A stretch of DNA of 64,000 nucleotides, from NCBI GenBank assembly GCA_002425325.1, contig DIMA01000018.1:8259-72258 (forward strand), given 5' to 3'. Source of the stretch: Bacillales bacterium UBA5578. Lineage in GTDB: Bacteria > Bacillota_I > Bacilli_A > RF39 > UBA660. The notes below the pieces were generated by a model. It was given only the letters and a program-made list of their open reading frames with translations, was not told the origin of the DNA and searched no databases. Below, one piece after another: positions 11,300 through 41,010 of the stretch. How positions within the stretch are numbered: the stretch's first letter is position 1; the number at the start of each line of letters is the position of its first letter. The position numbers were made by a program, and so were the translations under genes.

Positions 11300-12877
11300 A
11301 TGATTTTAAGAAAACCATATGCATTTGTAATAAAACACTTTAAATTAATTCATTTAATCTGTTTTGTTTTAGTAGGTTTATTAATAATGAATACATTAAC
11401 TACTATGACATTTTTAAATGAATTTTTAAAATCAAATTTAGCATATATAAATAGAGCTGATTTTAATAGTAATTTTAGTTGGACTTTATTGGTAGTACCA
11501 GTAGTAATACTTGCAATATTTATTGGTATTTCTGCTCTTATGTATATGAAACAAAAACCAATTAAATTTTATATATTTTCTATAATAGGGTTAAGTTTAA
11601 TATTTGCTTTCAATATATATGTTAGAGGCATAATGTATTCAATGATTGAAAGTATGCAATCAGTACAAACTATAAAAGTATTAGCGGACTTCTTGTTATT
11701 TTCAGTGTTTTTTGAATTATTTGTGTTATTAACATGTTTTATAAGAGGTATTGGATTTAATATTAGTAGATTTGATTTTAATACTGATTTAAATGAAATG
11801 ATTGAAGAAAACGATAATGAAGAAGTAGAATTTCAATTTGATTTAGATTTAAATGATATTAAAAGAAATAGTAATAAAACAAAAAGACAAATAAGATATT
11901 TTTATAAAGAGAATCAATCTATTATTAAATATACAGGAATGGTTATAATAGGAATATTTGCAATATTAGGTATAAAATTATTTTTAGATAGTAGAAAAGA
12001 TATTACTCGAGGTCCTATATCATATAATGATTTTACCTTTGAAGTAGTTGATAGTTATATTACTAATACTGATATTAATTATAAAGAATTAGATAATAAT
12101 ACGTATTTAATAGTTGTTAAAGCCAATATTACTAATGATAATACAAAAGAAGCACAAGTATTTAAAACAGGGACTTTAGTTTTAAATTTAGATAATAATT
12201 TATTTAAAACAACTGATGCATATGGAAATGCAACACAAGATATTGGTGATAATTATACTCACTTTGCAATAGCACCAGAACAAACAAAAGAAGTATTATT
12301 TACTTTTGCAATACCTAAGAATCATATTAAGTCAAAAAAATATATAGGCGTTAGGGATTTATATGGTCAACATACGACATATATTAAATTAAATCCTGAA
12401 AAACTATATAATATGAATGAAGAAAAAATAGAATCTAAGGTAGGAAAATCAATATTATTAGATAATAGTACTATCAAAGGTACTGAATTTACAATAAAGA
12501 ATGTTGAATTTGCTGAAAAATTTAAACTACAATATAACTACAGATATTCTAAAGATAAAACTTTTGCTTCAATAGAATATGTAACTCCTAAGGTATTAGA
12601 TAAAAAAGTTGATAAGGCAATTATGAAATTAAATATTAAGTATCATAATAAAGAGAGTAAAGAATTTATGTACTTAGTTGATAAATTTGGTTCGTTAGAA
12701 TATGAGATTGCTGGGAAAAAATATACTCAAAACAAAGGTATTAATAGAGTTATTCCAACTTCAATAAAAAATAACGAGATATATTATTTAGAAATTAATA
12801 AAAATATATTAGATGCTGATAAGGTTACATTAGTATTTAAAATAAGAAATATAGAATATAGATATAAGTTAAAATAG
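11300..12877 (+). CDS. Membrane protein with 4-5 N-terminal TM helices and a large extracytoplasmic C-terminal domain. First gene of the accessory island.
   Basis: Hydrophobic segments in residues 1-230 followed by a hydrophilic N/K-rich domain. An extended -10 'tgtatact' lies upstream at ~11260. Confidence 0.4.
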   Translation: MILRKPYAFVIKHFKLIHLICFVLVGLLIMNTLTTMTFLNEFLKSNLAYINRADFNSNFSWTLLVVPVVILAIFIGISALMYMKQKPIKFYIFSIIGLSLIFAFNIYVRGIMYSMIESMQSVQTIKVLADFLLFSVFFELFVLLTCFIRGIGFNISRFDFNTDLNEMIEENDNEEVEFQFDLDLNDIKRNSNKTKRQIRYFYKENQSIIKYTGMVIIGIFAILGIKLFLDSRKDITRGPISYNDFTFEVVDSYITNTDINYKELDNNTYLIVVKANITNDNTKEAQVFKTGTLVLNLDNNLFKTTDAYGNATQDIGDNYTHFAIAPEQTKEVLFTFAIPKNHIKSKKYIGVRDLYGQHTTYIKLNPEKLYNMNEEKIESKVGKSILLDNSTIKGTEFTIKNVEFAEKFKLQYNYRYSKDKTFASIEYVTPKVLDKKVDKAIMKLNIKYHNKESKEFMYLVDKFGSLEYEIAGKKYTQNKGINRVIPTSIKNNEIYYLEINKNILDADKVTLVFKIRNIEYRYKLK

Positions 12878-12887
12878 GAGGTAATAG

Positions 12888-13550
12888 ATGAAAAAGAAAA
12901 TATTATTTTTTATAATTGCATTATTATCTCCAATGATGGTTAATGCATTAAATTGTAGTGATGAAGAATATGCTAATGTATCAAAATTAGCATCAAACGT
13001 TAAATTAAGTTATGAATATAAAATAGATGAAAACAATAATATAACTTATGTTATTACATTTAGTAATTTAACAAGTGATATGAGAATATTAGATAATAAA
13101 CTAGTTAAAATATATCAAGGTTTTAGAACAGGTAGAGATTTTTCTTTTATTTCTACAGTTGATGGTTCATATAATTTTGAATTATATTCTATTAGTTGTT
13201 CATCTAAATTAACTAATAAAACAATACATATACCTAGTTATAATAAACTGGCTATTGATAAAAGATGTAATGGATTAGAAGAATATAATGTATGTAATAG
13301 ATGGTCAAGTTATACAGCTGATGAAGAAAAATTTGAGAAAGATTTAAAAGCAGCAAAAGAAGATTATAAAAAAAGAAACGAAACTAAAAAAGATAATAGT
13401 AAAAGAGAATATACTTTTATGGATCAATTAATTAGATTTGTAGCTAAATATTTGATTTTAATTGTTGGTATATTATTAATATTAATTTTAATTGCAAACT
13501 TACTTTATAAGAAACATAAAGAAAAAACTGAGTTTAACTTTAAATTATAG
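12888..13550 (+). CDS. Secreted protein with a signal peptide and a C-terminal TM anchor.
   Basis: Signal peptide 'MKKKILFFIIALLSPMMVNA'. C-terminal 'ILIVGILLILILIANLLYKKHK'. GGAGG RBS. Confidence 0.4.
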   Translation: MKKKILFFIIALLSPMMVNALNCSDEEYANVSKLASNVKLSYEYKIDENNNITYVITFSNLTSDMRILDNKLVKIYQGFRTGRDFSFISTVDGSYNFELYSISCSSKLTNKTIHIPSYNKLAIDKRCNGLEEYNVCNRWSSYTADEEKFEKDLKAAKEDYKKRNETKKDNSKREYTFMDQLIRFVAKYLILIVGILLILILIANLLYKKHKEKTEFNFKL

Positions 13551-13653
13551 TGGATTAATATCCACTATTTTTTTGTAAATAAAATGTCTTGTTTTTAAAC
13601 AGTATTTAATGTATAATTATTTTAGTGTAAAAATATGTAAGATAGGTGATTAT

Positions 13654-16600
13654 ATGATAAAAAAATTATTGAAAACATTAATAGTGACAAGTGTTTTCTT
13701 ATTAATATTAACTATGACATTTGTACCAAAAGTAAATGCTGAAGTATGGTCAGGAGGAGGAAACGGAAATCCATTTGTGCCAGGTAGTGGTGGACCGTCG
13801 AATTGTTTTAGAGAAGTTTTTGCTTTTGGAGTTAGAATAACAATTGTAGATATTAATTCGGGGCAAAGAATTTCTGGGACAAAAACGATTGATTATTGGC
13901 AAAATGTTAGCACTGCAAAACACGGGCCTGATATTTTAAAAATAGAAGGCTTTGATTATGGTCATTTTGGATATCATTCTAAGCAAGAAACTATTAATGG
14001 TATATCTACTATTGCTCAATATAGTTGGGATGATTCTAATAATAAGTTATTACAAGATATTGGAATAATGTCAACCACAAATTATGCTGCAAAAACATAT
14101 GATGCTACAGATACTGTATATGGTAATAACTGTGCTAATGATGTAAGACAAGAATTAGATATTTGGTTTCAAAATAAAGAAAAAACTAAGATAGCTAAAA
14201 TATTAACAAATGCAGGAGTAACAGGAAATAATACTGAAGAAATAATCAATAAGTCAAAAAACTATGTTATTCAAATAGAACCTTTAATGGCGACTGGTCA
14301 AACCTTTGCTTGTAATTCATCTCAAGATGGTAAAAGAATAGGTACGCCAACTCAATATTCTCTTCATTGGGATCAAGTTTATAATAATTATATATTAAAG
14401 GTTAGTTCATATTGGTATCCTTATATTTTTGCAAAAAAATCAGCAGGATATACTAAAGTAGCCAATTTAAATTTATGTGATTCGGTTATTGCTGATAATG
14501 TATCTAGAGCTACAATCGCTACAGATTCATGTATAGCTGTTTCTTTGTATAGAATAAAAGATATAGTAGATGACTTATGTCCTACAGAATATGAAAGTAA
14601 TAAAACAGCTATTTTAGGTAATAGAACAGTTAGAAATGAATTTATGAGCAGATATAATTTACCTAATGATTTTGATAGTAGTGGTAATTTAGGAGGATTG
14701 TCAGATTTAGCGTTAACTTTATATGGTGCTCCATCTAATGGAGATTTAGCATGTGGTACATATAGTTGTAATGATAATGCTAATGCTATATACAATAAAT
14801 TTTTTAGTTCTAATCCAACAAAGTATAATTCATTAATAACACAAATGTATAATAAATCTGGAAAAAAATATAATCTATTACTAACTCAATTTTGGCAAGT
14901 TGCAAATCCAAGTGGGCCAACGTGTGGTAAAACAGAATCATGTCTTGCTACAAAAGATATAAATTGTGATACGGCTAGTAATAAAGTATTAGTAATATCT
15001 GATTCTAATGAAAAAAGATGTTGGTATACTAATGAAATAGGATATAACAATCAAAGTAGTCATATTATTCCTATAAAAGCTAAAGATACTGGCTGTGTTG
15101 ATGGTGTTGAAGATAGTTGTAATACTTACAGAGATACGGGTTGTAAAATAGTTTGTAGACAAACTGTTACGTTTGAATTTCCAGGAAATGTTGTTAATAA
15201 AGTAAAAGCTGGTATGGTATTTAAATGGGGAACAGATAACAATAAATCAACTAGTTTGTTTGGAAAAATGAAAGTTAAAATGACTTGTCAAGTTAAGTCG
15301 AATGGAAATGATTGTAGAACTCATAAGAGAATACATAGGGCTAATGATAAATGTTATCATAAAAGTTCTTGGAAGGATTCTAAATCTGGGTTTGTATGCT
15401 ATGGCGGTTGGGAAGATCAAGAAGTTGATGATCTATCTAGTTGCAAAACCCCTTATCCACCAGGTCATGCAAAAGCTGGTGAATGTAAAGAATATAATAA
15501 AAAAACACAATATAGATGTAAAGAAATTCATAGTTTTGACTGGGCAACTTGGGTGCCAGCCCATGGATATTTAAATTCTACAGTTAAATTACCGGATTTA
15601 AGTAACTTAGATACTAAAGTAAATATAGATTATAACTTAAGATATAGTGTAAATGGTGATTTGGAAAAAACACTTATAAGTGGTGAGTCTCAAAATAATG
15701 GAGCAACAGTTACTTGCTATAAAGGTGCTAAAAATAATTGTAAATTAGGTGGCTTAGATATATCTACACATACGAGAGATGTAGTCGGAACATATGAGTT
15801 AAAATATACTAAAAAATTTAATTGGTATTCATCTAAATTAGATGGTACATTATATGATAAGAGTGATTATGATTCAAAAACATCGTCTGATAGTAGTAAA
15901 AAATCATTCTATTACTATATAGGATATAGTATGCCTACTTCATTTAAAACTCATTCTGGAACTTATAATGATAAATTAGTCGCTACTGTAAGTAATGTTG
16001 GATTTAATGATCATTTTGATAGTTTATTAGGTGGAACTGGTTCGTTTGTATATTCTTGTGGATTAAAAATTCATAACGAAATATATGATAACGAATGTTA
16101 TGATGAAAATGGTAATCTTTTACCAAATGCTCCGGCATATTGTTTACCTTCAAATGATCCAAAAGGAATAGACGTTGTATTTAGAGAAGTTCAATTAATA
16201 AACGGTTCTACAGATAAACATATAAGATATGCATTCCCAGGTGCTAAGGCTAATGCATTCTCTAGTGGTAAACCTAGACAAAAAGGTGCAAACTGGGCGG
16301 TATTAACTAATCAAGAAATATATAATGTTTTAAATGTTAATGTATATAATAATAAACCAATGTATGAAATTAAATTAGATACAAGAGTTATTACAAATAT
16401 TAGAGATATTAATAAAAAAGCAAAAAACAAAAATAAAGATCCATATTCAGGTATGCATGATATGAGTGGTAATAACAAAACATTGGCTGGTGGCTTCATT
16501 GGATATAAATGTTTAGATGGAGTTAACGGAAAATATTGTGCTAGTTCATTCTTATCAGAGTTATATAATAAATATGGATTAACTGGTGAATGTATATGGA

Positions 16601-16668
16601 CATCAAATACAAGTGATAGAGCTAACAGAATAGCTAATGGTACATATAAAAAATGTAAAAATGTTTAA
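13654..16668 (+). CDS. Very large (~1005 aa) Cys-rich secreted protein. Candidate adhesin or pilus-associated tip protein. The start was moved to the Met that follows the RBS.
   Basis: Signal peptide 'MIKKLLKTLIVTSVFLLILTMTFVPKVNAEV'. More than 40 Cys, many in CxxC or C..C pairs. No TM after the signal peptide. Confidence 0.5.
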   Translation: MIKKLLKTLIVTSVFLLILTMTFVPKVNAEVWSGGGNGNPFVPGSGGPSNCFREVFAFGVRITIVDINSGQRISGTKTIDYWQNVSTAKHGPDILKIEGFDYGHFGYHSKQETINGISTIAQYSWDDSNNKLLQDIGIMSTTNYAAKTYDATDTVYGNNCANDVRQELDIWFQNKEKTKIAKILTNAGVTGNNTEEIINKSKNYVIQIEPLMATGQTFACNSSQDGKRIGTPTQYSLHWDQVYNNYILKVSSYWYPYIFAKKSAGYTKVANLNLCDSVIADNVSRATIATDSCIAVSLYRIKDIVDDLCPTEYESNKTAILGNRTVRNEFMSRYNLPNDFDSSGNLGGLSDLALTLYGAPSNGDLACGTYSCNDNANAIYNKFFSSNPTKYNSLITQMYNKSGKKYNLLLTQFWQVANPSGPTCGKTESCLATKDINCDTASNKVLVISDSNEKRCWYTNEIGYNNQSSHIIPIKAKDTGCVDGVEDSCNTYRDTGCKIVCRQTVTFEFPGNVVNKVKAGMVFKWGTDNNKSTSLFGKMKVKMTCQVKSNGNDCRTHKRIHRANDKCYHKSSWKDSKSGFVCYGGWEDQEVDDLSSCKTPYPPGHAKAGECKEYNKKTQYRCKEIHSFDWATWVPAHGYLNSTVKLPDLSNLDTKVNIDYNLRYSVNGDLEKTLISGESQNNGATVTCYKGAKNNCKLGGLDISTHTRDVVGTYELKYTKKFNWYSSKLDGTLYDKSDYDSKTSSDSSKKSFYYYIGYSMPTSFKTHSGTYNDKLVATVSNVGFNDHFDSLLGGTGSFVYSCGLKIHNEIYDNECYDENGNLLPNAPAYCLPSNDPKGIDVVFREVQLINGSTDKHIRYAFPGAKANAFSSGKPRQKGANWAVLTNQEIYNVLNVNVYNNKPMYEIKLDTRVITNIRDINKKAKNKNKDPYSGMHDMSGNNKTLAGGFIGYKCLDGVNGKYCASSFLSELYNKYGLTGECIWTSNTSDRANRIANGTYKKCKNV

Positions 16669-16694
16669 AACAAGGTTGATTAACCTTGTTTTTT
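16669..16694 (+). terminator. Strong rho-independent terminator after the Cys-rich protein gene.
   Basis: aaacaaggtt-gatt-aaccttgttttttat: 9-bp stem followed by a T-run. Confidence 0.7.
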
Positions 16695-16877
16695 ATATAA
16701 TTTTCACATTTCAATATTTTGAAAAAAGGTATGGAATAAACATAAAAAGTATGTTATACTATTAATAGTATTTATGATAGGTAATAATAGATGTGTTGTT
16801 TTTATGGATTGGACACATCTTTTATACCGAGATAGTGCTGGTAATAGTTTATGTATATTTAGGTAGGAGGTGTCTGA

Positions 16878-17294
16878 ATGAAAGAATCATTTTGGGCAAT
16901 GATGGTTGTAGGACTTGGAATTGTTTCTATCTTGTTCATTTATTATTTTCAATCAGTTACAAATACAAGTGAACATAATTATGAATTAGTAAAAGAATCG
17001 ACTGAGGCTGCTATGTTTGACTCACTTGATCTTGCGGCTTATCGTCAAGATAGAACTATTAGGATTGATAGAGAAAAGTTTGTAGATAGTTTTTTAAGAA
17101 GATTTTCTGAAAATGCTAGTTTATCAAATGAGTATGATATCAAAATATATGATGTCAATCAAAAACCTCCAAAAGTTAGTATAAAAGTAACATCAAGAGG
17201 TAGTGATATTGCATTTAGTATAACTGGTGAAAGTGTTAATTCATATATTACTACACAAATTGATGGTATTTTAGAAGCTAAATATGCAAATTAA
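16878..17294 (+). CDS. TadE-like minor pilin/pseudopilin candidate. First gene of the Tad-like operon.
   Basis: N-terminus 'MKESFWAMMVVGLGIVSILFIYYF' shares the 'MKES' leader plus hydrophobic helix with ORFs 21623 and 22132. Size 138 aa. GGAGG RBS. Confidence 0.4.
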   Translation: MKESFWAMMVVGLGIVSILFIYYFQSVTNTSEHNYELVKESTEAAMFDSLDLAAYRQDRTIRIDREKFVDSFLRRFSENASLSNEYDIKIYDVNQKPPKVSIKVTSRGSDIAFSITGESVNSYITTQIDGILEAKYAN

Positions 17295-17318: not shown

Positions 17319-18188
17319 ATGAATAATTTAGTTATTTCATCAAAAAAATTTATTACTAACAAAAATACAGTAACAATTATAGGTGTTGTTGTTATATTAG
17401 TTATTTTATATTTCTTATATAGCTCAACAGTAAGTAAAGCTACTCAAATGATTGAAGTTCCAGTAGCTGCAAAAACAATTAATCCACAAACACAAATAAC
17501 TGCAGATGATGTAACTTATATTGAAGTTGCTAATGCTGCAAAACCAGATAACGTTTTAACTAACGAAAATGATATCGTTGGTAAGTATTCTGGTGTAGGA
17601 TCAACTATTCCAGAAGGAAGTATGTTCTATGATCAAGCAGTTGTAGAAAAAGATGATCTACCTGGAAGTTGGTTAACTAGATTAGAAAAAAATTCATTAG
17701 GGGAATTAGATATTCCAATTTATATAAGTGTTGATACTACTACTACATATGGTAACTCAATTCAACCAGATATGTATGTTGATATCTATGTTAAAGCTGT
17801 TAATGAAAAAGAAGTATTAATGTTTGGTAAAATGTTAAGTAATATTAAAGTATTAGCTACAACTGATAGTGATGGTAAAGATGTATTTAGAAGTTCAGAA
17901 GATATTGGTACACCTGCTTTCTTAAATTTTGGTGTAAGTGCTGATAATTTTGATTTATTAAAGAAAGCAATCTACTTAGATGGTAAACAAATAGAATTAG
18001 TTGTTGTACCACATGGTGGTGCTGAAAAAGAAACAGGACTAGAAGTTAATGTATCAAGTGAATATTTAAGAGATTATATTCAAAATTTAACATTCGAATT
18101 ACCACAAAATGCTGAAGTAACAACTCCTGAAACTACTCCAGGAACAACACCAGAAGTTACTACTCCAGTTGTTACTCCAACAAATTAA
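17319..18188 (+). CDS. cpaB: Flp pilus assembly protein CpaB/RcpC-like (SAF-domain protein).
   Basis: N-terminal TM, then 'VPVAAKTINPQTQITADDV...' consistent with an SAF/CpaB domain. Thr/Pro-rich C-terminus. Position immediately upstream of tadA. Confidence 0.55.
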   Translation: MNNLVISSKKFITNKNTVTIIGVVVILVILYFLYSSTVSKATQMIEVPVAAKTINPQTQITADDVTYIEVANAAKPDNVLTNENDIVGKYSGVGSTIPEGSMFYDQAVVEKDDLPGSWLTRLEKNSLGELDIPIYISVDTTTTYGNSIQPDMYVDIYVKAVNEKEVLMFGKMLSNIKVLATTDSDGKDVFRSSEDIGTPAFLNFGVSADNFDLLKKAIYLDGKQIELVVVPHGGAEKETGLEVNVSSEYLRDYIQNLTFELPQNAEVTTPETTPGTTPEVTTPVVTPTN

Positions 18189-18210: not shown

Positions 18211-19536
18211 ATGATGGATAATATATTTGATCAAATGGACTTTGGTCCATTACAACAATATTTAGATAATGATGATGTTACAGATATTTCATATAGTAAT
18301 GGTGGACAAGTTTGGTTAAAAACATTATCACACGGAATATTTAGAATTGAAAATCCAGCTATAAACAATGCGTTTATGGAAAGACTGGCATTTCAATGTT
18401 CGAATGTTGTAGGGCATAGCTTTAATGCAGCCCATCCTTTTCTAGATAGTGAAGACGCTGAGTTACGTATGAATTTTATACATGAATCAATTGCAAAAAA
18501 TGGTATTGCATGTGTTATTCGTAAAACTCCAGCTAAAATAAGATTAGAAAAAGATAAAATTATAGCAGATAAATATATTACAGAAGATATTCATGAATTA
18601 TTAATTCATTGTGTTCATGGACATTGTAATATAATTGTATGTGGAGAAACAGGTTCAGGTAAAACAGAGTTTGTTAAATATTTAGCTTCACATACTAAAG
18701 AAAATGAAAAAATAATTACTATCGAAGATACTCTAGAACTTCACTTGGATAGAATTTATCCACATAGAGATATAGTTGCAATGAAAACTAATAATGTTGC
18801 TTCATATTCAGATGTTTTAGTTTCTTGTATGAGACAAAATCCAAAATGGATATTACTTTCCGAAGTTCGTAGTGCTGAAGCAGTTACTGCAACACGTAAC
18901 TCAATATCATCAGGACATTATATTTTATCAACAATACATGCTGATAAAGCTTCTTCTATTCCTAACCGTATGTATGGTCTTATGGAAACAAGTCAAGATG
19001 TTGATCAATTTTTAAAAACTTTTTATAGGTACATTCAAATTGGTGTATATATTAGAGGTTACCAAGATAAGAAAACTCAAAGATTTGTTCGTGAAATAGC
19101 AGAAGTTTGTGAATTTTATGTTACAGAAGAAAATGAAGCAAAATATAATGTAATTTATAAGAAAACCCCTGATGGAAAAGTTGTTAAGAAAGAACCAACT
19201 CAATATCTATTAGATTATCTTGAAAGTCAAGGTGTTATATTACCATCTGGTTTAATTAAAGAGGAAACTATAGATACAGGTGAAGTTGCATTTGGTGTTG
19301 ATACAATTTCTTCATCAGGTGGTATGAGTATTGAAGATTTTAATAATGGTAGTGATATGAATAACGGAGTCGAAATCCCTAAGGATATTAATGAAGATTC
19401 CGTAAATAATCAAGTTGATACACAACAAGTTGTTCAAACTGAAAATAATAGTGTATCTTCAGGGCAGGAAGTTGTACAAACAGTTCAACCAGTACAACAA
19501 CCATCAGTTAATCCAACTGAACAAAATATTGGTTAA
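18211..19536 (+). CDS. tadA: TadA/CpaF-family secretion ATPase (T2SSE/VirB11 superfamily).
   Basis: Walker A 'CGETGSGKTEF'. 'ITIEDTLEL' corresponds to the Asp box. 'ILLSEVR' is the Walker B/His-box region. T2SSF-like genes lie directly downstream. Confidence 0.8.
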   Translation: MMDNIFDQMDFGPLQQYLDNDDVTDISYSNGGQVWLKTLSHGIFRIENPAINNAFMERLAFQCSNVVGHSFNAAHPFLDSEDAELRMNFIHESIAKNGIACVIRKTPAKIRLEKDKIIADKYITEDIHELLIHCVHGHCNIIVCGETGSGKTEFVKYLASHTKENEKIITIEDTLELHLDRIYPHRDIVAMKTNNVASYSDVLVSCMRQNPKWILLSEVRSAEAVTATRNSISSGHYILSTIHADKASSIPNRMYGLMETSQDVDQFLKTFYRYIQIGVYIRGYQDKKTQRFVREIAEVCEFYVTEENEAKYNVIYKKTPDGKVVKKEPTQYLLDYLESQGVILPSGLIKEETIDTGEVAFGVDTISSSGGMSIEDFNNGSDMNNGVEIPKDINEDSVNNQVDTQQVVQTENNSVSSGQEVVQTVQPVQQPSVNPTEQNIG

Positions 19537-22117: not shown

Positions 22118-22131
22118 TAAGAGGTGACTAA

Positions 22132-24592: not shown

Positions 24593-24601
24593 GGGGATAA
24601 T

Positions 24602-25081: not shown

Positions 25082-25089
25082 GAGGATAT

Positions 25090-25506: not shown

Positions 25507-25510
25507 GAGT

Positions 25511-27095: not shown

Positions 27096-27158
27096 TATGA
27101 TATATTGACACAAAAAAACTAATAGAGTATAATTTTTAGTATAGAGGAGGAAAAAATT

Positions 27159-31395: not shown

Positions 31396-31924
31396 ATATA
31401 CTAATGATGATATTCCTGTAAAGAGTATAACTAATGGTGTTATTCATCTAGAAGGTAGAGATAATATGAAAGTAACAGGTGTTAAGATAATGCCTAGAAA
31501 TATATTTATCTTAGATCCAGGAATGCAAAATGCAATAATAACTAATTTAAAAACAGTTTATAATGTTATAGATTATGAATTTTGGATAATTGTAGCTGAT
31601 AGACCAGTTGATATAAATGTATATCTATCTGAGTTAGAATTACTTTATAATAAAACATCAGATCCAGCTAGAAGAAAAATAATTACTGAAGATTTAAATA
31701 AAGCTAATATGTTTACAAGTAATAATGTAGTAGATACTGAATATTTCTTATTATTTAAAGAAAGAAATGATGATGTTATTGGAAAGAGAATTAGAAATTT
31801 AATTAATAATTTTGCTAATGCAGGTTTAACAGCTTTCCAAACATCTAATGATGATTTAAGAATGATTTTAGATAATTTCTTAAATGGTGGACAAACAACA
31901 GAATTTGGAACGGTGTTATCATGA
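31376..31924 (+). CDS. VirB4/TrsE-like ATPase, N-terminal fragment (183 aa) encoded as a separate ORF.
   Basis: 'DDIPVKSITNGVIHLEGRDNMKVTGVKIMPRNIFILDPGMQNAIITNLKTVYN' matches the conserved N-terminus of Gram-positive VirB4 (Orf16/TcpF type). It ends with a TGA that overlaps the next ATG (ATGA). Confidence 0.55.
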   Translation: MATQKSKYTNDDIPVKSITNGVIHLEGRDNMKVTGVKIMPRNIFILDPGMQNAIITNLKTVYNVIDYEFWIIVADRPVDINVYLSELELLYNKTSDPARRKIITEDLNKANMFTSNNVVDTEYFLLFKERNDDVIGKRIRNLINNFANAGLTAFQTSNDDLRMILDNFLNGGQTTEFGTVLS

Positions 31925-33727: not shown

Positions 33728-36052
33728 ATGAATAATCAAAGTATACCTAAAATAAGTAATTCAGGAAATGGTGGGGCAAAAACCCCATCATTATCTGCTA
33801 ATACGGGTGAAAAAAATAATACTAAATTAGCTAATATAAACAAACAAAAAAGTTCGACTCCATCTGGTAAAAGAGCTGAAGACTATAAAAAAGGTTTATC
33901 TAATAATAAAGGTGATGCAGCAAAGCAAAGATTAAATAACTTAAAAGACAATATGAATAATCTTAAAAAGTTTGCTGCAAAAGAGGGAATAAAAAAAGCT
34001 GCAGCTGCGTATGGAGTACCAGAACCAGTTGTTGGTAATCTTCTTAATTCAAAATTGGGAGATAAACTTATTGATGAAGCATTGAAAAAGGGAGATCCTG
34101 CTGCTGCATTGGAACCATTAAAAAAAGTTGGAAAAGGTGCAATAGATGCTTCTAAAAAAATAAATGATGCTTTTTCTCCTGAATCGGAAAAATCTTCTGA
34201 TCAAAAAAGTGATGAGAGAGAAGCAGAAAAAGTTAATAATGGTGAAATTACTTTTGAGTTTTCAGGTAAAACAATAAAATATTTAGCAATTATTGCTCCA
34301 GTATGTTTTGCTTTATTAATGTTTGTTATGATTGTAGTTGTAGCCATATCTGATGATAAAGCATCATCTATGATTTTAGCAGGGTTATCTTCAGATGAAA
34401 GAGGAGCTATATTAGATCAATTTGGTAATGGATCTGGTGAAATTGCATATAATACCGTTGGTAAAGGTACTAATGAATATCCTAAAAGTTATTATGAAAG
34501 ATTAGAAAGTTTAGGAAATGTTTATTCATCAGATGGAAAATGTAAGGGTGCAGACTGTATGTCTCGTGCTGAATTCTTATATTATCTAAAAATTGCTGAC
34601 ATTAGTTTAAGATATCAAAATAAATACGGTGTAAAATTAGATTGGTTCTTGATAGCAGCAACTAATTTATACCAAGATAATACTAATGAAGAAACAATGG
34701 AAAAAAATACTGGTGGATATGATAAAGATACAGTAGAAAATTTTGATACACCTTCATTATTAGATTGGGATAATGATTTTAAAAATATGGATGGTTATAC
34801 ATATTTAGATCCTAATGATTCAAAATATGATTTAAATATTTTAGCTAAAAATATGGTAACTAAAAAAACATATCAAAGTTGTACTAAAAATGGTACAGTT
34901 ACAAAGAATCAAGAAGATACTGATGTAGAAGATATGTATTTTACTCCAACAGGTGGTAAGAAATTAATTTGTGCTGCTGGAGAAACTTATAGCATATACA
35001 GTACATATACTTTAGATAAAGATAAGTATGATGAATTTATGCTTGAATATATTGATAAAAAAATGTTAACTCCAAGTACAGGAGGAGCATCAGGTAGTGG
35101 CTGTTATTATTGGCCTTTAAAAAATGGTGCAGGAACTATTACTTCAAAATTTGGTAATAGAAAAGCACCAACTCAAGGAGCATCTACTAATCATAAAGGT
35201 TTAGATATTGGTGTTCCAGAAGGTACTGAAATAGTATCAACTATTCCAGGAACTGTTATTCGTGCAGGTGCTGTTGATGGCTTTGGATATGCTGTATATA
35301 TTGATCATGGTAATGATATGGTTTCAAAATATGGTCATATTAGAGCTGATGGTATAAAGGTAAAAGTAGGAGATAAAGTATCTCAAGGTCAAGTTATTGC
35401 TTTATCAGGAAATACTGGTATTTCAACAGGTCCACATTTACATTTTCAATTAGAGATGAGTGGTAATCCAGTTGATCCTTTAGATTATGTAAGTCAAGAC
35501 AATCCTGCTCCTACAAGTTGTAGAACAGTTTCAGGAAATTCATTATCAAATGCTTTTGTTAAATTAGCATTAGCGCAAATCAATGATCCTGAAGGAGTTA
35601 ATGGTAAAAAGTATTGGCAATTTATGGGATATAATAGTAGAGTTCCATGGTGTGCTGCATTTGTTTCATGGGTAGTTCAAAATACTAACTTTAATGGTCA
35701 AAGAATGGCTAGTATAGTTAATTATAGATCTGCAAGTGTAAATGAATGGATGAAATATTTTAATGGTGGAACAGGTAAAATTAAATTTTATTATAATGAT
35801 AATTGTTCAAAATATGCTGGTAAAAATGGAAGTGGAAAATATATTCCAAAAGAAGGAGATATGATTTTCTTTGATTGGGATCAAACATGGAATGGTAATT
35901 TCCCACCTTCAGGACCAGATCATATAGGAATTGTGCAACATACAAGAAATGGTGTTATTACTACAATAGAAGGTAATACAAGTAATAAAGTAGCTGAAAG
36001 AACTTATAACTTAAATAGTTGTAAAGTTGTAGGTTTTGGTTCTTGGTATTAG
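33728..36052 (+). CDS. Membrane-anchored bifunctional peptidoglycan hydrolase with an M23 (LytM) endopeptidase domain and a C-terminal CHAP domain (VirB1/TcpG/CwlT analog).
   Basis: M23: 'HKGLDIGVPEGTEIVS...GNTGISTGPHLHFQ'. CHAP: 'VPWCAAFVSWVV...DHIGIVQHT'. Lys-rich N-terminal region plus a TM helix 'YLAIIAPVCFALLMFVMIVVVAI'. Confidence 0.8.
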   Translation: MNNQSIPKISNSGNGGAKTPSLSANTGEKNNTKLANINKQKSSTPSGKRAEDYKKGLSNNKGDAAKQRLNNLKDNMNNLKKFAAKEGIKKAAAAYGVPEPVVGNLLNSKLGDKLIDEALKKGDPAAALEPLKKVGKGAIDASKKINDAFSPESEKSSDQKSDEREAEKVNNGEITFEFSGKTIKYLAIIAPVCFALLMFVMIVVVAISDDKASSMILAGLSSDERGAILDQFGNGSGEIAYNTVGKGTNEYPKSYYERLESLGNVYSSDGKCKGADCMSRAEFLYYLKIADISLRYQNKYGVKLDWFLIAATNLYQDNTNEETMEKNTGGYDKDTVENFDTPSLLDWDNDFKNMDGYTYLDPNDSKYDLNILAKNMVTKKTYQSCTKNGTVTKNQEDTDVEDMYFTPTGGKKLICAAGETYSIYSTYTLDKDKYDEFMLEYIDKKMLTPSTGGASGSGCYYWPLKNGAGTITSKFGNRKAPTQGASTNHKGLDIGVPEGTEIVSTIPGTVIRAGAVDGFGYAVYIDHGNDMVSKYGHIRADGIKVKVGDKVSQGQVIALSGNTGISTGPHLHFQLEMSGNPVDPLDYVSQDNPAPTSCRTVSGNSLSNAFVKLALAQINDPEGVNGKKYWQFMGYNSRVPWCAAFVSWVVQNTNFNGQRMASIVNYRSASVNEWMKYFNGGTGKIKFYYNDNCSKYAGKNGSGKYIPKEGDMIFFDWDQTWNGNFPPSGPDHIGIVQHTRNGVITTIEGNTSNKVAERTYNLNSCKVVGFGSWY

Positions 36053-36061
36053 GAGGTTAAT

Positions 36062-36733
36062 ATGAAGAAAAATATTTTATTATTAGGATTATTAATCTTA
36101 TTATCTGGTTGCACAACAAAATATAATTTAACTTTTTCAGGTGATAAAATAAAAGAAAATATTGATATTAATATAGATAATGCAGAAATAAAACTAGGTG
36201 AGTCATATGTGCCTGGTATTGAATCTGATAATCGTATAAATAATATATTAAAAGAAGATCAATATCCATTATTTAATAATGAAAAAGTAAAATATGACAA
36301 AAAAGTTACTAGAAAAGGTTCTTATACAAATGTAAAATTAAGTCATAGTTATACATTTGATGAATATTTAAGTTCAAATGCATATTTAACATGTTTTGAA
36401 AATAAAAAAATGTCTAAAAATAGAAATTCATATTCTTTATCATTAAATGGTAATTTCTATTGTTTATATAGTGATGATATAGAAATAAATATTAAAACAG
36501 ATAGAGAAGTATTAAAACATAATGCTGATAAAGTAAAAGGAAATACATATACATGGATTATTAATTCAGAAAATGTAAAAGATGCTAATATATATTTCCA
36601 AATGTCTACAAGATACAAATCTACAAATACTATACTAATTGTAGTAGCAGTAGTTGTTGGAGTAGTATTATTAGGCGGAGGATTTATTATATATAGTAAA
36701 CTAAAAAATAGAGACAGCATTAATGAAATATAG
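36062..36733 (+). CDS. Lipoprotein with an additional C-terminal TM anchor (paralog A).
   Basis: Lipobox 'LLSGC'. C-terminal 'ILIVVAVVVGVVLLGGGFIIY' followed by a basic tail. Homologous to the ORF at 38117. Confidence 0.45.
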   Translation: MKKNILLLGLLILLSGCTTKYNLTFSGDKIKENIDINIDNAEIKLGESYVPGIESDNRINNILKEDQYPLFNNEKVKYDKKVTRKGSYTNVKLSHSYTFDEYLSSNAYLTCFENKKMSKNRNSYSLSLNGNFYCLYSDDIEINIKTDREVLKHNADKVKGNTYTWIINSENVKDANIYFQMSTRYKSTNTILIVVAVVVGVVLLGGGFIIYSKLKNRDSINEI

Positions 36734-36746
36734 TAGAGGTGTTAGT

Positions 36747-38108
36747 ATGAAAAAAGAATTAAAAAGAATATTATTTATTGTTTTAACAGTATCATTATTA
36801 ATACCTTTTACTGTTTTTGGATATGAATTTGAAAATAAAGAAAGAGAATCTAATGCTAAAAGAGTAAAAGAAGAAATATACGATTTATATAATTTATATA
36901 AATATATAATTGGTAATAATCCAGAAACTGAATACGGTGTTATTGGTTATAATGGTCAATGTTCACAAGTAACAGTAAATGGAAAAACAGTTAATATAGA
37001 TGATTATATTGCTGGTGTTATTAAACAAGAAATGGGTGGAAATAACTTACAAGCCTTAAAAGCTCAAGCAATTGCAGCTAGATCTTATTTATTAAGTACA
37101 AATTCTGGTTCAACTTGTAAAGTAGTTAATGGTCAAAGTTATCAAGCTTATACTGAAGAAAAAAATAGGAACTCTATATATTATAGAGCAGCAAAAGAAA
37201 CTTCAGGAATGGTTGTTAGTAGAAATGGTAGAATAGCTATGACTCAATATCAATCACATCCTGCAGGTAAATGGTGTAAAGAAGATGCTAGTGGTTGGCA
37301 TATTACTTTCCAAAGATTTTCAGACGATTCTAGTTCAACATGGGTTTGGAATGGACCTAATAAAGAAACTGTTAGAAGAGTAGCTGGAGACGGTTCATTA
37401 TATGGAACAGAAATGAACTACAATAATGGACATCACTTTGGAATGAGTCAAACAGTAGCTATGTATTTAGCTAAAGCACAAGGATATTCATATGAAAAAT
37501 TAATCAAAACATTCTATGGTGAAGATGTAATGAAATTATCTGATGGAGTGTATGATGGTAATTTAAGTTATGTGGATTCTGATTTTGGAAAAATATACTA
37601 TTATAATCAATTGGATTATGCTAAATACTATTATTCTGCAAATCCATCAAGTTCAAATACATATGGAGGTACAATAGCAAGTCATGGTTGTGGACCTACA
37701 TCTATGGCAATTGTAGCTTCTAGTATGCTTAACAAAAATATTTCACCAGTTGAAACAACTCAAAAAACTTGTGCAGCTGGAGGATGTACTTCTGGTGGAT
37801 CATATAATAATACATTAGGTCAAGTATTGAATCAACAATACGGATTACATGTTAAAATGTCTGGTAATAATCAAGAAGTATTAAATGCACTTGGATCTGG
37901 TAAATCATTAGTTATAGTTTTAATGGGACCAGGAACATTTACTACTGGAGGACACTATATTGTATTAACTGGTGTAAATAGACAAGGTCAAGTATCTGTT
38001 GCAGATCCAGCTAGTAGAAAAAGAACTGAAACTAAATGGTTCTCATTTAATACAATAATAGAACAAAGAAAAAAATATGCTAATTATACAATAATTACTA
38101 AAAGTTAG
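36747..38108 (+). CDS. Secreted cell-wall hydrolase with an N-terminal SpoIID/LytB-like domain and a C-terminal papain-like (C39-like/CHAP-like) peptidase domain.
   Basis: 'QALKAQAIAARSYLL' matches the SpoIID signature (EALKAQAVAARTY). C-terminal 'GCGPTSMAIV...GGHYIVLTG' gives a Cys/His dyad. Signal peptide after the Met at 36747. Confidence 0.55.
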   Translation: MKKELKRILFIVLTVSLLIPFTVFGYEFENKERESNAKRVKEEIYDLYNLYKYIIGNNPETEYGVIGYNGQCSQVTVNGKTVNIDDYIAGVIKQEMGGNNLQALKAQAIAARSYLLSTNSGSTCKVVNGQSYQAYTEEKNRNSIYYRAAKETSGMVVSRNGRIAMTQYQSHPAGKWCKEDASGWHITFQRFSDDSSSTWVWNGPNKETVRRVAGDGSLYGTEMNYNNGHHFGMSQTVAMYLAKAQGYSYEKLIKTFYGEDVMKLSDGVYDGNLSYVDSDFGKIYYYNQLDYAKYYYSANPSSSNTYGGTIASHGCGPTSMAIVASSMLNKNISPVETTQKTCAAGGCTSGGSYNNTLGQVLNQQYGLHVKMSGNNQEVLNALGSGKSLVIVLMGPGTFTTGGHYIVLTGVNRQGQVSVADPASRKRTETKWFSFNTIIEQRKKYANYTIITKS

Positions 38109-38116
38109 GTGATTTG

Positions 38117-38800
38117 ATGAAGAAAAATTTAATATTATTATTTATTGTATTCTTATTAAGTGGTTGTACAGTTGATTATCAATTAACAATTGATAAGAAT
38201 GGGAAAGTATCAGAGGATGCTCGAGCAATGGAAGATCAAGAATTCTTTAAAGAATATAATAAATCTTCTATTGGTAGAGTAGTTGGATTTTTAATTGAAC
38301 CATATTCTGAGGAATTAAATAAGAACAACTATACTACTAATACTATTATAAATAAGAGCACAGGTGGTGCTAATCTTAGTAAAGAATATAGTAGCGTTGA
38401 AGAATATTCTAAAAACACTAAATTAGTTGGTCAATTTTCTGATAATGTAATCTATAAAGAAGATGGATCAAAAGTTACATTAAGTGTTAAAGGAAAATTA
38501 TCAGATCAAGAACAAAACCAAGATAAATTTCCAATAGATTCTGCTACAATCATTATTGAATTACCATTTGAGGTAACAGATAATAATGCCGATAAAATTG
38601 TAGGTAGAAAATATATTTGGAATTTAGAATCTGGAAAAGAGAAAGAAATAAAATTAGTATATAATAAAAATAAAATAGCAAAAGATAATGGAGATAATAT
38701 AGTTATATTTGTTGTAATTGGTGCAATTGTATTAATTGCAATTGGTGTAGTAGCTGTATTTAACTTTAAAGCTAAAAGAGAAGAAATGAATAAAATATAA
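38117..38800 (+). CDS. Lipoprotein with a C-terminal TM anchor (paralog B).
   Basis: Lipobox 'LLSGC'. C-terminal 'IVIFVVIGAIVLIAIGVVAVF'. Shares 'CT..Y.LT' and 'ADK(V/I).G..Y.W' motifs with the ORF at 36062. Confidence 0.45.
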   Translation: MKKNLILLFIVFLLSGCTVDYQLTIDKNGKVSEDARAMEDQEFFKEYNKSSIGRVVGFLIEPYSEELNKNNYTTNTIINKSTGGANLSKEYSSVEEYSKNTKLVGQFSDNVIYKEDGSKVTLSVKGKLSDQEQNQDKFPIDSATIIIELPFEVTDNNADKIVGRKYIWNLESGKEKEIKLVYNKNKIAKDNGDNIVIFVVIGAIVLIAIGVVAVFNFKAKREEMNKI

Positions 38801-38811
38801 GGAGGTAATAT

Positions 38812-41010
38812 ATGAAATTAAAATTTAGAGCAGAAAAAAAAGACGTAATAATATTTTTAATATTTTCATTAATATTATTTCTTTTGATATGTTTAGCCGT
38901 ATCTAATATTGGTTCATTTTTATCAGAAGAAGGTACATTTTCAGGACTTAATATAGTTCCTGCATTAACAACATATTTACCTTTAACATTGTTATTATTT
39001 ATTGTTTGTATTATAGCAATGTTTATGAGTGTTCAATCTTGGTTTATTGAACGTGAAGAAGGTGTAGGATTCCAAATTGGATCTAAAAGAGAAAAAAATT
39101 ATTCACACTGGGAAAAAGACTCAGAAATGAAAAAGGGTCAAGATATAGTTGCAGTTGATCCATTAGCACCAAAAGCTAATGCTGCTGGTATACCAATTAT
39201 TATGACACCTAAAAAAGTATGGGTTGATAATGGTGGATATCATAACTTAGTAATAGGTTCTACTGGTGCTGGTAAAACTCAAACAACTGTATTACCAATG
39301 GTTAACTTATTAGCAAAAAATGATGAATCTATGATTATTACCGACCCAAAAGGTGAAATCTATGAAGATACATCTAATTATTTAAGAAGTTTAGGATATA
39401 ATATAGTTTTATTAAACTTCCGTGATCCTCAACAAGGTAATAGTTGGAATCCAATGTATTTACCATATTCATTATATAAAGATAATAAAATAGATAAATC
39501 AATTGAGTTACTTGAAGACTTAGCTGCAAATATATTAAAAGATCCTTCTGCTAAAGGACAAGACCCATTCTGGGAAAATACTTCAGCCGATTATTTTGCA
39601 GGTTTATCATTTGCATTATTTGAAGATGCTGATGAATCACAAGTAAACTTAAATAGTATTAACTTAATGACAACAGTTGGAGAAGAAAAATTAGCTAATA
39701 CAACATATGTAAAAGAATATTTTACATTTAAAGATCCAGCTAGTACAGCTTATATTAAAGCATCTTCTACACTGATGGCACCAAACGAAACAAAAGGATC
39801 TATCTTATCAGTATTTAAACAAAGAGTTCAATTATTTGCATCTCGTACTAATTTATCTGAGATGTTAGCAAATAATGACTTTGATATGAGAGATATTGGT
39901 CGTAAAAAAACAGCAGTATTTATTGTAATTCAAGATGAAAAAACAACATATCATACTTTAGTTACAATATTCTTAAAACAATGTTATGAAACTTTAATTT
40001 CAGTAGCACAAGAATGTGGAGGAAAATTACCACATAGAACAAACTTTATTCTTGATGAGTTTGCTAACATGCCACCATTAAAGGATGTTACAACAATGGT
40101 TACTGCTGCTCGTTCAAGAAATATAAGATTTACATTTATCATTCAAAACTTTGCTCAATTAAATGAAGTTTATGGTAAAGAAAATGGTGAAACAATTAAA
40201 GGTAACTGTGGTAACATAGTTTACTTAATAAGTACTGAACTTACAGCGCTTGAAGAAATAAGTAAGATGTGTGGTGAGGTTAAATCTAAAGAAAAAGAAA
40301 AAACTTCATCTACACCATTAGTTACTGTAAGTGATTTACAAAGAATGAAACAATGGGAAACAATTATACTACGTATAAGAACAATGCCATTTAAAACAAC
40401 ATTAACTCCAAACTTTAAAATGCAATGGGGACATAATTTCCCTAAAGCTGATTATCCAATGAGAGAAGAAAAAGGAGTTAAAACATTTGATTTAAAAACA
40501 TATGTTGAGAAAAAAAGAGATGAAAAGATTAATAACTTAATTGGTGGTGCTAATAGTAACTCTCCATTTGGTGGTGGAAATTCTCCATTTGGAGCCCAAG
40601 GTAGTTCACCATTTGGTGGTGGAAGACAAAATAGTCCATTTGGAGGAGGAATGCCTTCAACACCATTTGGAAATGGAACACCAAGTAGTCCATTCTCATC
40701 AAAACCTCAACAAACTGCTCCAAGTAGTCCATTTGGTACTCCAAAAAATGAGGACTCAGGAATTAATATGGAAAGTTTAGTTAATAGAATCAATGCTAAA
40801 ATTGAAGAATTGGAAGCTGAAGATAAAAAGAATAATGAAGTTAAACAAGATAAAGTTATTGAACCATCACCTTTTATGAGTGATAAATTAGTTTCTAATA
40901 CTAAACCTTCAACATCAAAACCAGTTGAATCATTTGTACCTGATACAAATACTCATAAATCAGGAGTTACTGATGATCAATTCTTTGATGATTTCTTTGG
41001 AGATGATTAA
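38812..41010 (+). CDS. VirD4/TraG-family type IV coupling protein with two N-terminal TM helices and a C-terminal disordered tail containing 'SPFG' repeats.
   Basis: Walker A 'VIGSTGAGKTQTTVLPM'. 'NFILDEFANMPPL' is the TraG/VirD4 Walker B region. The tail has six or more S/T-P-F-G(G) repeats. Confidence 0.75.
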   Translation: MKLKFRAEKKDVIIFLIFSLILFLLICLAVSNIGSFLSEEGTFSGLNIVPALTTYLPLTLLLFIVCIIAMFMSVQSWFIEREEGVGFQIGSKREKNYSHWEKDSEMKKGQDIVAVDPLAPKANAAGIPIIMTPKKVWVDNGGYHNLVIGSTGAGKTQTTVLPMVNLLAKNDESMIITDPKGEIYEDTSNYLRSLGYNIVLLNFRDPQQGNSWNPMYLPYSLYKDNKIDKSIELLEDLAANILKDPSAKGQDPFWENTSADYFAGLSFALFEDADESQVNLNSINLMTTVGEEKLANTTYVKEYFTFKDPASTAYIKASSTLMAPNETKGSILSVFKQRVQLFASRTNLSEMLANNDFDMRDIGRKKTAVFIVIQDEKTTYHTLVTIFLKQCYETLISVAQECGGKLPHRTNFILDEFANMPPLKDVTTMVTAARSRNIRFTFIIQNFAQLNEVYGKENGETIKGNCGNIVYLISTELTALEEISKMCGEVKSKEKEKTSSTPLVTVSDLQRMKQWETIILRIRTMPFKTTLTPNFKMQWGHNFPKADYPMREEKGVKTFDLKTYVEKKRDEKINNLIGGANSNSPFGGGNSPFGAQGSSPFGGGRQNSPFGGGMPSTPFGNGTPSSPFSSKPQQTAPSSPFGTPKNEDSGINMESLVNRINAKIEELEAEDKKNNEVKQDKVIEPSPFMSDKLVSNTKPSTSKPVESFVPDTNTHKSGVTDDQFFDDFFGDD

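Follow-up and report, generated by a model that had tools for sequence, protein, structure and literature searches.

What does it mean when the genes of a Tad-type pilus and those of a Gram-positive type IV secretion system (T4SS) stand in one unbroken row on a chromosome: one machine or two, mobile or resident? The question is raised by a 64,000-nucleotide stretch of DNA, here called the window, from Bacillales bacterium UBA5578 of the order RF39 (assembly GCA_002425325.1, contig DIMA01000018.1, positions 8,259 to 72,258). In this very AT-rich window (~25% GC), 28 co-directional open reading frames (ORFs) on the + strand fill positions 11300-41010 head to tail. A sequence-only reading had described the block as an island that pairs two normally separate machines. 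The explanation we favor, with somewhat better than even confidence, is that the block has been inherited vertically as a core locus of RF39 (family CAG-822 and relatives) and encodes one composite envelope machine that comes from the "three-ATPase" plasmid conjugation systems of Bacillota, with DNA supplied in trans as its favored substrate.

RF39 is an abundant, uncultured, genome-reduced lineage of the human and animal gut. Its members are predicted to be walled, spore-forming, and dependent on scavenged wall precursors (PMC10868615). A literature search found no paper linking RF39 to a T4SS.

Hidden Markov model (HMM) scans identify scpA (10441-11151, - strand) and scpB (- strand) at the left of the block and rmuC (41100-42170), followed by the RNase R gene, at the right. 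Between them, the Tad-like engine consists of a CpaF-family ATPase, a GspF-fold platform protein and a second, candidate platform protein, CpaB-like and TadZ-like proteins, a candidate short pilin, two minor-pilin-like proteins, and a DUF5411 protein. The T4SS genes encode six VirB2-like proteins, a VirB6-like protein, VirB3, a TrsD-like protein, VirB4, two wall hydrolases, and the coupling protein VirD4. The earlier inventory of genes is borne out, in part by HMM, profile, or structure matches, although some of the labels remain weak.

A Core Locus of RF39

The distribution of the block was followed from both of its ends. When one genome from each GTDB species was scanned with RmuC, 80 species came back, represented by uncultured "Bacilli/Tenericutes" metagenome-assembled genomes (MAGs); among them are Candidatus Coprosoma, Firmicutes bacterium CAG:822, and a circular genome of 1.20 Mb. 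Homologs of the TadZ-like protein include one from Candidatus Fimihabitans. Coprosoma and Fimihabitans are both placed in order RF39, family CAG-822, by Gilroy et al. (PMC8035907). Of the 63 species loci that extend 5 kb or more upstream of rmuC, 56 encode VirD4 immediately upstream of this gene, and the hydrolases, VirB4, the TrsD-like protein, and VirB3 are found upstream of VirD4 in these loci. A second set of 80 metagenome loci was gathered with the ATPase as query. Thirty-two loci extend 10.5 kb or more beyond the ATPase on its downstream side, and 26 of them include T4SS genes. Around TadZ-like homologs and in the metagenome loci, the complete order of genes can be followed: it is preserved in loci L086 and L087 and in ~30 long metagenome contigs, often with scpAB at the left, and runs from the 525-residue first gene through DUF5411, CpaB, the ATPase, both platforms, the pilins, the TadZ-like, VirB2-like, and VirB6-like proteins, VirB3, and the TrsD-like protein to VirB4. 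An exact-match look-up also found an identical VirD4 on metagenome assemblies.

The first gene of the cluster (11300-12877) encodes a polytopic membrane protein of 525 residues with about five predicted membrane segments and an outside domain, and has no family match. A metagenome scan with this gene returned no relatives because it is too divergent; a positional ortholog at ~30% identity is present in 40 related loci.

Median identities within the cluster are 79% for VirB4 (59 loci), 78% for the ATPase (82 loci), 73% for the TrsD-like protein, 68% for VirD4, 66% for the TadB-like protein, and 62% for VirB3, and those of the neighbors are 76% for RmuC, 68% for SmpB, 63% for RNase R, 60% for ScpA, and 56% for ScpB, the RmuC and ATPase values being biased upward because loci were chosen by RmuC or ATPase similarity. 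The surface parts reach 27-45%. By these comparisons, the ATPases are as conserved as the neighboring housekeeping genes while the exposed parts evolve fast, and the pattern is one of vertical inheritance within the lineage with strong constraint on the motors.

No significant att-like repeats flank the block; the best candidate is an AT-rich match of 13 bp, and 8% of shuffles also produce a shared 13-mer. Given this result and the pattern of conservation, with the block upstream of rmuC in most species and its ATPases housekeeping-like, "island" is the wrong term for it. The features of an integrative and conjugative element (ICE), i.e., an integrase, att repeats, and variable presence among relatives, are all missing. 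The sequence-only reading was right that the block is no classical ICE, since relaxase, integrase, and att-like repeats are all lacking.

The Tad-Like Engine

The motor of the first module (18211-19536; T2SSE, E 7.5e-27) is a secretion ATPase of the CpaF/VirB11 family. Against structures in the PDB, its family profile scored 105.7 bits with CpaF, 94.7 with VirB11/Cag-alpha, and 90.4 with FlaI, a small margin for CpaF, and the CpaF alignment includes the N-domain. The NCBIfam scores are split between VirB11 (TIGR02788; 112 bits vs a cutoff of 250), TadA-type (99 bits), and TrbB (93 bits) models, all below cutoff. The ATPase sequence alone is ambiguous between Tad and VirB11, and it is the neighboring genes that settle its Tad-like identity. 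A plain VirB11 accompanied by unrelated membrane proteins does not describe this module, in which a GspF-fold protein follows the ATPase and CpaB-like and TadZ-like genes lie around it.

The CpaB/RcpC-like protein (17319-18188) has an N-terminal anchor, a SAF domain (21.7 bits, at threshold), and a Pro/Thr-rich tail; it matches TIGR03177 with an E value of 7.6e-11 (41.7 bits vs a cutoff of 71), and one ortholog gives a weak match to RcpC. The TadB-like platform protein (19557-20462) carries a GspF-fold cytoplasmic domain. The second platform protein (20462-21247) is called TadC-like from its position and its topology of three membrane segments around a central soluble domain. It has no PDB or Pfam match, and its profile finds the second membrane protein after the ATPase on a Paraclostridium plasmid (E 1.3e-7) and on the Bacillus plasmid pBMB67 (43 bits). 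The TadZ/CpaE-like protein (22593-23564) has the combination expected of that family, a receiver-like N-terminal domain and an atypical ParA/MinD-like ATPase domain at the C terminus, here with a degenerate Walker A motif (KSSGATT).

The candidate pilins are recognized mostly by their N termini. A 77-residue Flp-like candidate (21366-21599) has the leader MKEA[AST]G/EAN[LM]T, near-invariant in ~40 species and followed by a hydrophobic helix. Two minor-pilin-like paralogs of 164 and 149 residues (21623-22117 and 22132-22581) match each other with an hhalign probability of 100% and share the conserved N terminus M[KR]E[SA]IG; their profiles give weak matches to the DUF4320 protein of pBMB67 and to an ORF of a Listeria plasmid. 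The DUF5411 protein (16878-17294; PF17424, E 4.9e-46), encoded by the first gene of the long operon, also begins in a pilin-like way, with a conserved MKESFW motif and a hydrophobic helix. Pfam signatures for Flp_Fap, TadE, and T2SSF are absent from all island proteins, and hhalign comparisons of the TadB-like with the TadC-like protein and among the pilin-like families detect similarity in the N-terminal helix only, barring the pair just described. Of the Tad genes originally proposed, the CpaF-like ATPase and TadZ-like assignments stand, and the CpaB-like one is probable; the Flp and TadE labels reduce to N-terminal motifs.

The module resembles the Tad/Flp systems of Caulobacter (Cpa) and Aggregatibacter (Tad) in its CpaF-like ATPase, two probable single-domain platforms, CpaB-like and TadZ/CpaE-like proteins, and candidate short and minor pilins. 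It differs from them in the unusual pilin leader (G/EANLT) and in being embedded in a T4SS operon.

The Type IV Secretion Module

The T4SS core begins with an extended VirB6-like polytopic protein (28931-31057) that has at least five membrane segments and a long hydrophilic C-terminal part. Its match to TrbL (E 0.004) is weak and below cutoff, and its gene lies directly before that of VirB3, as on plasmids. The small VirB3/PrgI-like membrane protein (31078-31395; PF26592 PrgI_like, weak) aligns with positions 2-79 of a mycoplasma VirB3–VirB4 fusion model. Next comes a 182-residue TrsD-like protein (31376-31924) that resembles the N-terminal part of VirB4 (NF045975 positions 98-277, E 1.9e-12) and whose stop codon overlaps the start of virB4. 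The first reading took this pair for a split VirB4, but there is no frameshift: the TrsD-like protein is a separate gene in 58 of 58 related loci, at a median identity of 73%, and its orthologs carry the TraC-like domain PF26593. TrsD is paired with VirB4 in the same way in the pGO1 subclass and in Patescibacteria (PMC12102498). VirB4 itself (31921-33708; AAA_10, P-loop_TraG) has its best curated match in the mycoplasma ICE VirB4 family NF045975 (336 bits, below the family cutoff of 590) and scores 165 bits with the CD1110 family.

Two wall hydrolases follow, the first membrane-anchored with M23 and CHAP domains (33728-36052; PF01551, E 6e-29; PF05257, E 3e-8) and the second with SpoIID-like and C39-like (C39_2) domains (36723-38108; PF08486, E 3e-14; PF13529, E 6e-14). 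Each is followed by a lipoprotein with a lipobox and a C-terminal membrane anchor (36062-36733 and 38114-38800); the two have a similar layout, and as queries both match the same ORFs in other species.

The operon closes with VirD4 (38812-41010; T4SS-DNA_transf, E 8e-57), which scores 297 bits with the CD1115 family NF045973, above the cutoff of 250. Its C-terminal region (40400-41010) is a hypervariable, disordered linker, with 4-8 PFG-type repeats in this strain and its nearest relatives (6 here, as SPFG), that leads to an acidic-aromatic tail. The tail ends in DDQFFDDFFGDD, a motif invariant in 60 species; across the orthologs (L006-L085) it reads [IV][TS]DD[QE]FFDDFFx[DE][DE], with the core DDQFFDDFF. 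An invariant tail behind a variable linker suggests a conserved docking partner.

Taken as a T4SS, the module has the components of the MPF-FATA class, i.e., VirB4, VirD4, VirB3/PrgI with a TrsD-like protein, and a wall hydrolase, the VirB6 match being weak; the linked relaxase of that class is missing. The ICEs of mycoplasmas (VirB4, Mbov_0397/CDS17; VirD4, CDS5), whose hosts are in the same broad branch of Bacilli as RF39, offer a close comparison, as the VirB3-like, TrsD-like, and VirB4 proteins align along a single fused mycoplasma protein. Those elements differ in moving by a DDE recombinase and in having no Tad-like module, and they lack wall hydrolases because their hosts are wall-less.

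The VirB2-Like Array

Six VirB2-like paralogs, a count already given in the first reading, lie between the Tad-like genes and the T4SS core, and all share a C-terminal two-helix membrane module with the loop QKEDEIKKGQ and flanking cysteines. The first four (336, 159, 138, and 155 residues; 23582-25978) have a signal peptide and a variable, Cys-containing outside part in front of the two-helix module. They match the mycoplasma ICE family MMCAP2_0566 weakly and are fast-evolving, with median identities of 27-41%. The shortest paralog, of 130 residues (27159-27551), is the best conserved (median 43%, up to 69%) and is a candidate for the major subunit. PF18895 (T4SS_pilin; E 0.0011 here) is the top family in 10 of 26 of its orthologs, the best E value being 8.7e-5 and all scores lying below the gathering score. 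The sixth, of 397 residues (27625-28818), carries a 12-Cys outside domain.

Extra VirB2-like paralogs occur outside the cluster in relatives (L013, L018, L021, L023, and many others); a frequent site is the interval from rmuC to the RNase R gene, which is free of them in the window. In two distant species, genes for thioredoxin-like PedC/TraF-like and bPH_3 proteins stand at the left border of the cluster (L087, 1342-2622; L171, 1547-3261), and the thioredoxin-like genes fit a need for disulfide formation in Cys-rich pilin-like proteins.

A Probable Single Transcription Unit

The sequence-only reading reported terminators at only a few points in the block, and + strand hairpins are found at just three places: at 13547-13568, after the second gene; at 16667-16700, where a hairpin and T-run follow the gene for a large Cys-rich protein; and at 41012-41040, where an AT-rich hairpin and T-run follow virD4. 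The last was read directly from the sequence, being too GC-poor to be flagged by the scanner, and is the probable end of the operon. Between 16.9 and 41.0 kb, the unit flanked by the second and third hairpins, no terminator-like site was detected on the + strand, and the Tad-like and T4SS genes thus resemble one ~24-kb unit, with a possible internal promoter. That promoter is a sigma-70 consensus (27105-27133; TTGACA-17-TATAAT) in front of the shortest VirB2-like gene, and is the only 12-of-12 match in 31 kb. The earlier suggestion that the two sets of genes may form a single apparatus gains from this layout and from a gene order that is kept across many species.

Relatives on Conjugative Plasmids

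The pairing of the two modules has precedents on the plasmids of Bacillota. Searches of plasmids with tblastn found ATPase homologs, annotated as "CpaF/VirB11 family protein," on Paraclostridium, Listeria (pLM), and Bacillus cereus plasmids and VirB4 homologs on Bacillus thuringiensis plasmids, at identities of 28-32% for the ATPase and 29% for VirB4. The plasmid annotation lists the ATPase with two membrane proteins of ~250-280 residues and small ORFs, adjoined by VirD4, a VirB6-type protein, a VirB3-like protein, a protein of ~200 residues, VirB4, and a hydrolase.

The comparison goes furthest with pBMB67 (NC_009841). This plasmid has one string of T4SS genes, encoding a MobP3 relaxase, VirD4, TrbL, PrgI, a 227-residue protein (h227), and VirB4, and, ~9 kb apart from it, a Tad-like string encoding a 134-residue protein, a SAF protein, an AAA ATPase, an ATPase of the type II secretion system type, membrane proteins of 305 and 244 residues, an 89-residue protein, and a DUF4320 protein. 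RF39 profiles match their pBMB67 counterparts with 294 bits for VirB4, 278 for VirD4, 131 for the ATPase, 126 for the CpaB-like protein, 71 for the TrsD-like protein (h227), 36 for the TadB-like protein, and 26 for DUF5411, in addition to the TadC-like match given above; the TadZ-like and VirB3 (PrgI) profiles match their counterparts as well. A smaller set of matches (DUF5411, the ATPase, the TadC-like protein or a minor pilin, VirB4, and VirD4) was obtained on Listeria plasmids (pLM6179/pLM5578) and a Paraclostridium bifermentans plasmid. The DUF5411 profile finds an ORF just upstream of the ATPase on pLM6179 and the Paraclostridium plasmid, or of the CpaB/TadZ-like neighbors on pBMB67. The same layout has been published for pAW63, with the ATPase named VirB11 (PMC1196294).

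Across these plasmids (pBMB67, pAW63/pXO2/pBT9727, and those of Listeria and Paraclostridium), gene order within the modules is the same as in RF39 where it can be seen, and a polytopic VirB6-type protein occupies the same position, unmatched by the RF39 profile. The plasmids differ in being mobile, with a MobP relaxase and replication genes, and a VirB2-like array was not detected on them. The literature search found no description of a Tad-like module in Bacillus plasmids, the ATPase being annotated only as "VirB11." The statement that Tad pili and T4SSs are normally separate therefore needs to be qualified: homologous modules co-occur on conjugative plasmids of Bacillota, and the matches indicate that the pairing is an existing, under-described Bacillota conjugation type, of which the RF39 cluster is a chromosomal, relaxase-less relative. 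The conjugative ancestry of the RF39 genes follows from the ten profiles that match pBMB67 genes and from the MobP3 relaxase of that plasmid.

According to a 2025 review, VirB11 homologs are missing from all Gram-positive T4SSs, as are VirB2-like pilins except in Patescibacteria (PMC12857230). Both generalizations need revision, as a class of Bacillota T4SSs carries a CpaF/VirB11-family ATPase together with Tad-type partners, and RF39 adds a candidate VirB2-like array. A type IV filament encoded alongside a conjugative T4SS, and assisting it or required for it, is also known from the thin pilus of the IncI plasmid R64 and from Pseudomonas PAPI-1 (PMC12857230). Those cases differ in that the pili are of type IVb, the hosts are diderm, and the elements are mobile and carry relaxases, and they are not homologous in detail.

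No Relaxase Within the Cluster and a Mobile Element Beside It

No island protein has a Pfam or NCBIfam match to a relaxase or to an integrase or recombinase; oriT was not searched for. Only four island proteins have no membrane or signal segments, and each of them has an assignment (ATPase, TadZ-like, TrsD-like, and VirB4). As every unassigned island protein is membrane-bound or secreted, there is no room for a hidden relaxase, and the absence of relaxase and integrase genes noted in the first reading is confirmed.

The only relaxase in the window, as that reading also stated, is a MobV (Mob_Pre) protein. It belongs to a separate integrative and mobilizable element (IME) of 5.7 kb at 1630-7375, whose genes, on the - strand, encode a 410-residue ORF product, the MobV relaxase (3019-4362), a large serine recombinase (4851-6749), and a 91-residue ORF product. 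One end of the element overlaps the 3' end of tRNA-Leu(caa) (7350-7436). The MobV protein has more than 7000 homologs, and an identical copy in the same cassette occurs at no fewer than four different low-GC chromosomal sites, with a variant at another site; the element is therefore mobile and separate from the cluster. It needs a T4SS in trans, a need that lends circumstantial support to the idea that the core machine transfers DNA. Of the roles first proposed for the block, a domesticated organelle fits best, and that of a helper for the nearby IME stays plausible since the MobV/serine-recombinase element is truly mobile.

A single large ICE reaching from the serine recombinase to VirD4 was considered and rejected, because yfhO, scpB, and scpA intervene and the recombinase/MobV cassette moves alone.

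What the Machine May Do

If the RF39 machine is a chromosomal descendant of a conjugation system that still transfers DNA, its parts would work as follows. The hydrolases would open the cell wall, and the Tad-like engine would build a short filament to reach or hold a partner cell, with the variable VirB2-like and Cys-rich surface proteins setting the specificity of contact. VirD4 would recruit the substrate by its invariant acidic-aromatic tail and pass it to a channel of VirB4 and VirB6. The substrate would be relaxase-bound DNA provided in trans, for which MobV/serine-recombinase elements such as that at 1.6-7.4 kb are one possible source; chromosomal DNA might be transferred too. The host would keep the machine for genetic exchange and adhesion. 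DNA is favored as the substrate because VirD4 passes the cutoff of the CD1115 family and has an invariant docking-type C-terminal motif, and because the MobV IME is mobile.

Several points weigh against this explanation. In no species examined does a linked relaxase accompany the cluster (oriT, again, was not searched for), which is unusual for a working conjugation system, and a non-DNA function would account just as well for long-term conservation at the level of the host. The evidence that ties the IME to the T4SS is circumstantial, and other conjugative elements may exist in RF39 genomes. No prepilin peptidase (TadV/CpaA, A24) was found among the island and flanking window genes scanned, two ORFs (60344-60895 and 61991-62641) being outside that scan, and a copy may lie there or elsewhere in the genome. 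The pilin, TadC-like, VirB6-like, and VirB2-like labels depend on weak scores, topology, or position, and the choice of loci by RmuC or ATPase similarity inflates two of the identities on which the argument from constraint draws. In 7 of 63 species, the T4SS is missing from this position, and in one lineage (L126/L142) at least 8 kb after the Flp-like pilin gene is replaced by unrelated ORFs (936 residues, 432 residues on the opposite strand, and 720 residues), a replacement that could be an insertion or a rearrangement.

The strongest alternative, which is possible though we hold it tentatively, is a cooption of the kind seen in Patescibacteria, in which the machine no longer conjugates and is a core organelle for attachment to, or exchange with, partner bacteria or a host, whether for the uptake of building blocks or the delivery of effectors, the VirB2-like array providing variable contact specificity. 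The T4SSs of Patescibacteria are chromosomal, inherited within classes, and mostly relaxase-less, include TrsD, VirB3, VirB4, and VirB6 along with 2-11 divergent VirB2-like genes, and are essential for epibiotic growth in one species (PMC12102498). Those of Saccharibacteria, including Southlakia epibionticum, share with RF39 a monoderm host, a chromosomal location, and wall hydrolases, and their VirB2-like arrays, found with PF18895, resemble the candidate array here (PMC12102498; PMC12857230). The RF39 cluster, being chromosomal, vertically inherited, and relaxase-less, with TrsD-like, VirB3, VirB4, and VirB6-like proteins and a candidate array of six divergent VirB2-like proteins, shares traits of that type and answers to the description of the essential Saccharibacteria T4SS (PMC12102498; PMC12857230). 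Fast-evolving surface parts alongside highly conserved ATPases suit this alternative too, as do the small genomes of RF39 (1.20 Mb for the circular MAG) and the predicted scavenging of wall precursors (PMC10868615). However, RF39 differs in its Bacillota host, in the Tad-like engine within the cluster, where Patescibacteria encode their type IV pili separately, and in keeping a well-conserved VirD4 with an invariant tail inside the operon; the coupling protein of Patescibacteria is usually distant and was not essential (PMC12102498). All the closest sequence relatives of the cluster are conjugative, and there is no direct evidence of RF39 cells living as epibionts.

An analogy with Saccharibacteria can be drawn further, as a speculation that we consider rather doubtful: RF39 may depend on its T4SS–Tad hybrid as Saccharibacteria depend on a T4SS and type IV pili, docking onto other cells and exchanging macromolecules or scavenging building blocks. 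If true, this would be a near-essential lifestyle organelle in a Bacillota lineage and, Patescibacteria aside, the first Gram-positive T4SS to combine a VirB2-like array with a dedicated type IV filament motor.

Two independent systems that are simply neighbors, an adhesive Tad pilus and a functionally uncoupled T4SS, would account for the ~9-kb separation of the modules on pBMB67, for the L126/L142 lineage with its other genes after the pilin gene, and for the consensus promoter at 27105-27133, which could start a separate transcript. The reading is nonetheless improbable, since nearly every RF39 locus of sufficient length to include both modules keeps their order and adjacency, no terminator-like site lies between them, the TadZ-like and VirB2-like genes are interleaved there, and the same pairing recurs in the transfer regions of unrelated Bacillota plasmids.

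It is very unlikely that the machine imports DNA for competence. Tad-like pili support transformation in Micrococcus, which is in favor of such a role for the Tad-like pilus here. The ComB T4SS of Helicobacter also imports DNA, but ComB-type importers work without VirD4 (PMC12857230), which is conserved in RF39, and the cluster holds no comEC or comEA-type genes. Least credible of all is a recently acquired or decaying ICE that has lost its relaxase and integrase. In its favor are the conjugation-type content, a GC of the block slightly above that of its flanks (27.4% vs 21-25%), and the presence of a serine recombinase and a MobV relaxase 4-8 kb to its left. Against it, more than 50 species share the position and gene order, the ATPases are under strong constraint, pseudogenes and att-like repeats are absent, and the recombinase and MobV form a 5.7-kb element of their own, which occurs elsewhere in the absence of the cluster and is separated from it here by the core genes yfhO, scpB, and scpA.

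A chromosome-fixed, conjugation-derived machine in a genome-reduced gut lineage suggests that cell–cell exchange is central to RF39 biology. It provides leads for cultivation, in the form of coculture partners, and for studies of gene flow in the gut, and it offers a natural test case for a type IV filament engine cooperating with a T4SS across the Gram-positive wall.

Other Genes of the Cluster and the Window

Between the first gene and the long operon lie two genes for secreted proteins. The first product (12888-13550) has a C-terminal membrane anchor and four Cys residues, with an ortholog at ~30% identity in 43 loci. The second (13609-16668) is the secreted protein of more than 1000 residues singled out in the first reading, a Cys-rich protein of 1019 residues (33 Cys) with a signal-like N terminus and a candidate adhesin. 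It has no ortholog in any related locus, and other species hold a different large ORF or none in this hypervariable slot. Within the operon, between the fourth and fifth VirB2-like genes, an accessory gene (25992-27095) encodes a 367-residue outside protein with an N-terminal membrane anchor and no family match, with an ortholog in 14 loci.

The window has a YfhO gene (7508-9883) immediately to the left of scpB, and in three related loci (L109, L111, and L130) a YfhO-family gene is inserted within the Tad-like module, between the TadC-like and pilin genes. A switch in GC skew near 7 kb was considered as a replication origin and set aside, being judged to track gene orientation. To the right of the cluster, the gene for ribosomal protein L20 (56453-57007) encodes a C-terminal Rho_N/SAP-like extension (PF07498, E 6e-9) that is unusual for L20. 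Two ORFs in housekeeping surroundings, 57089-58345 (418 residues) and 58317-59909 (530 residues), overlap at their ends and belong to no Pfam family.

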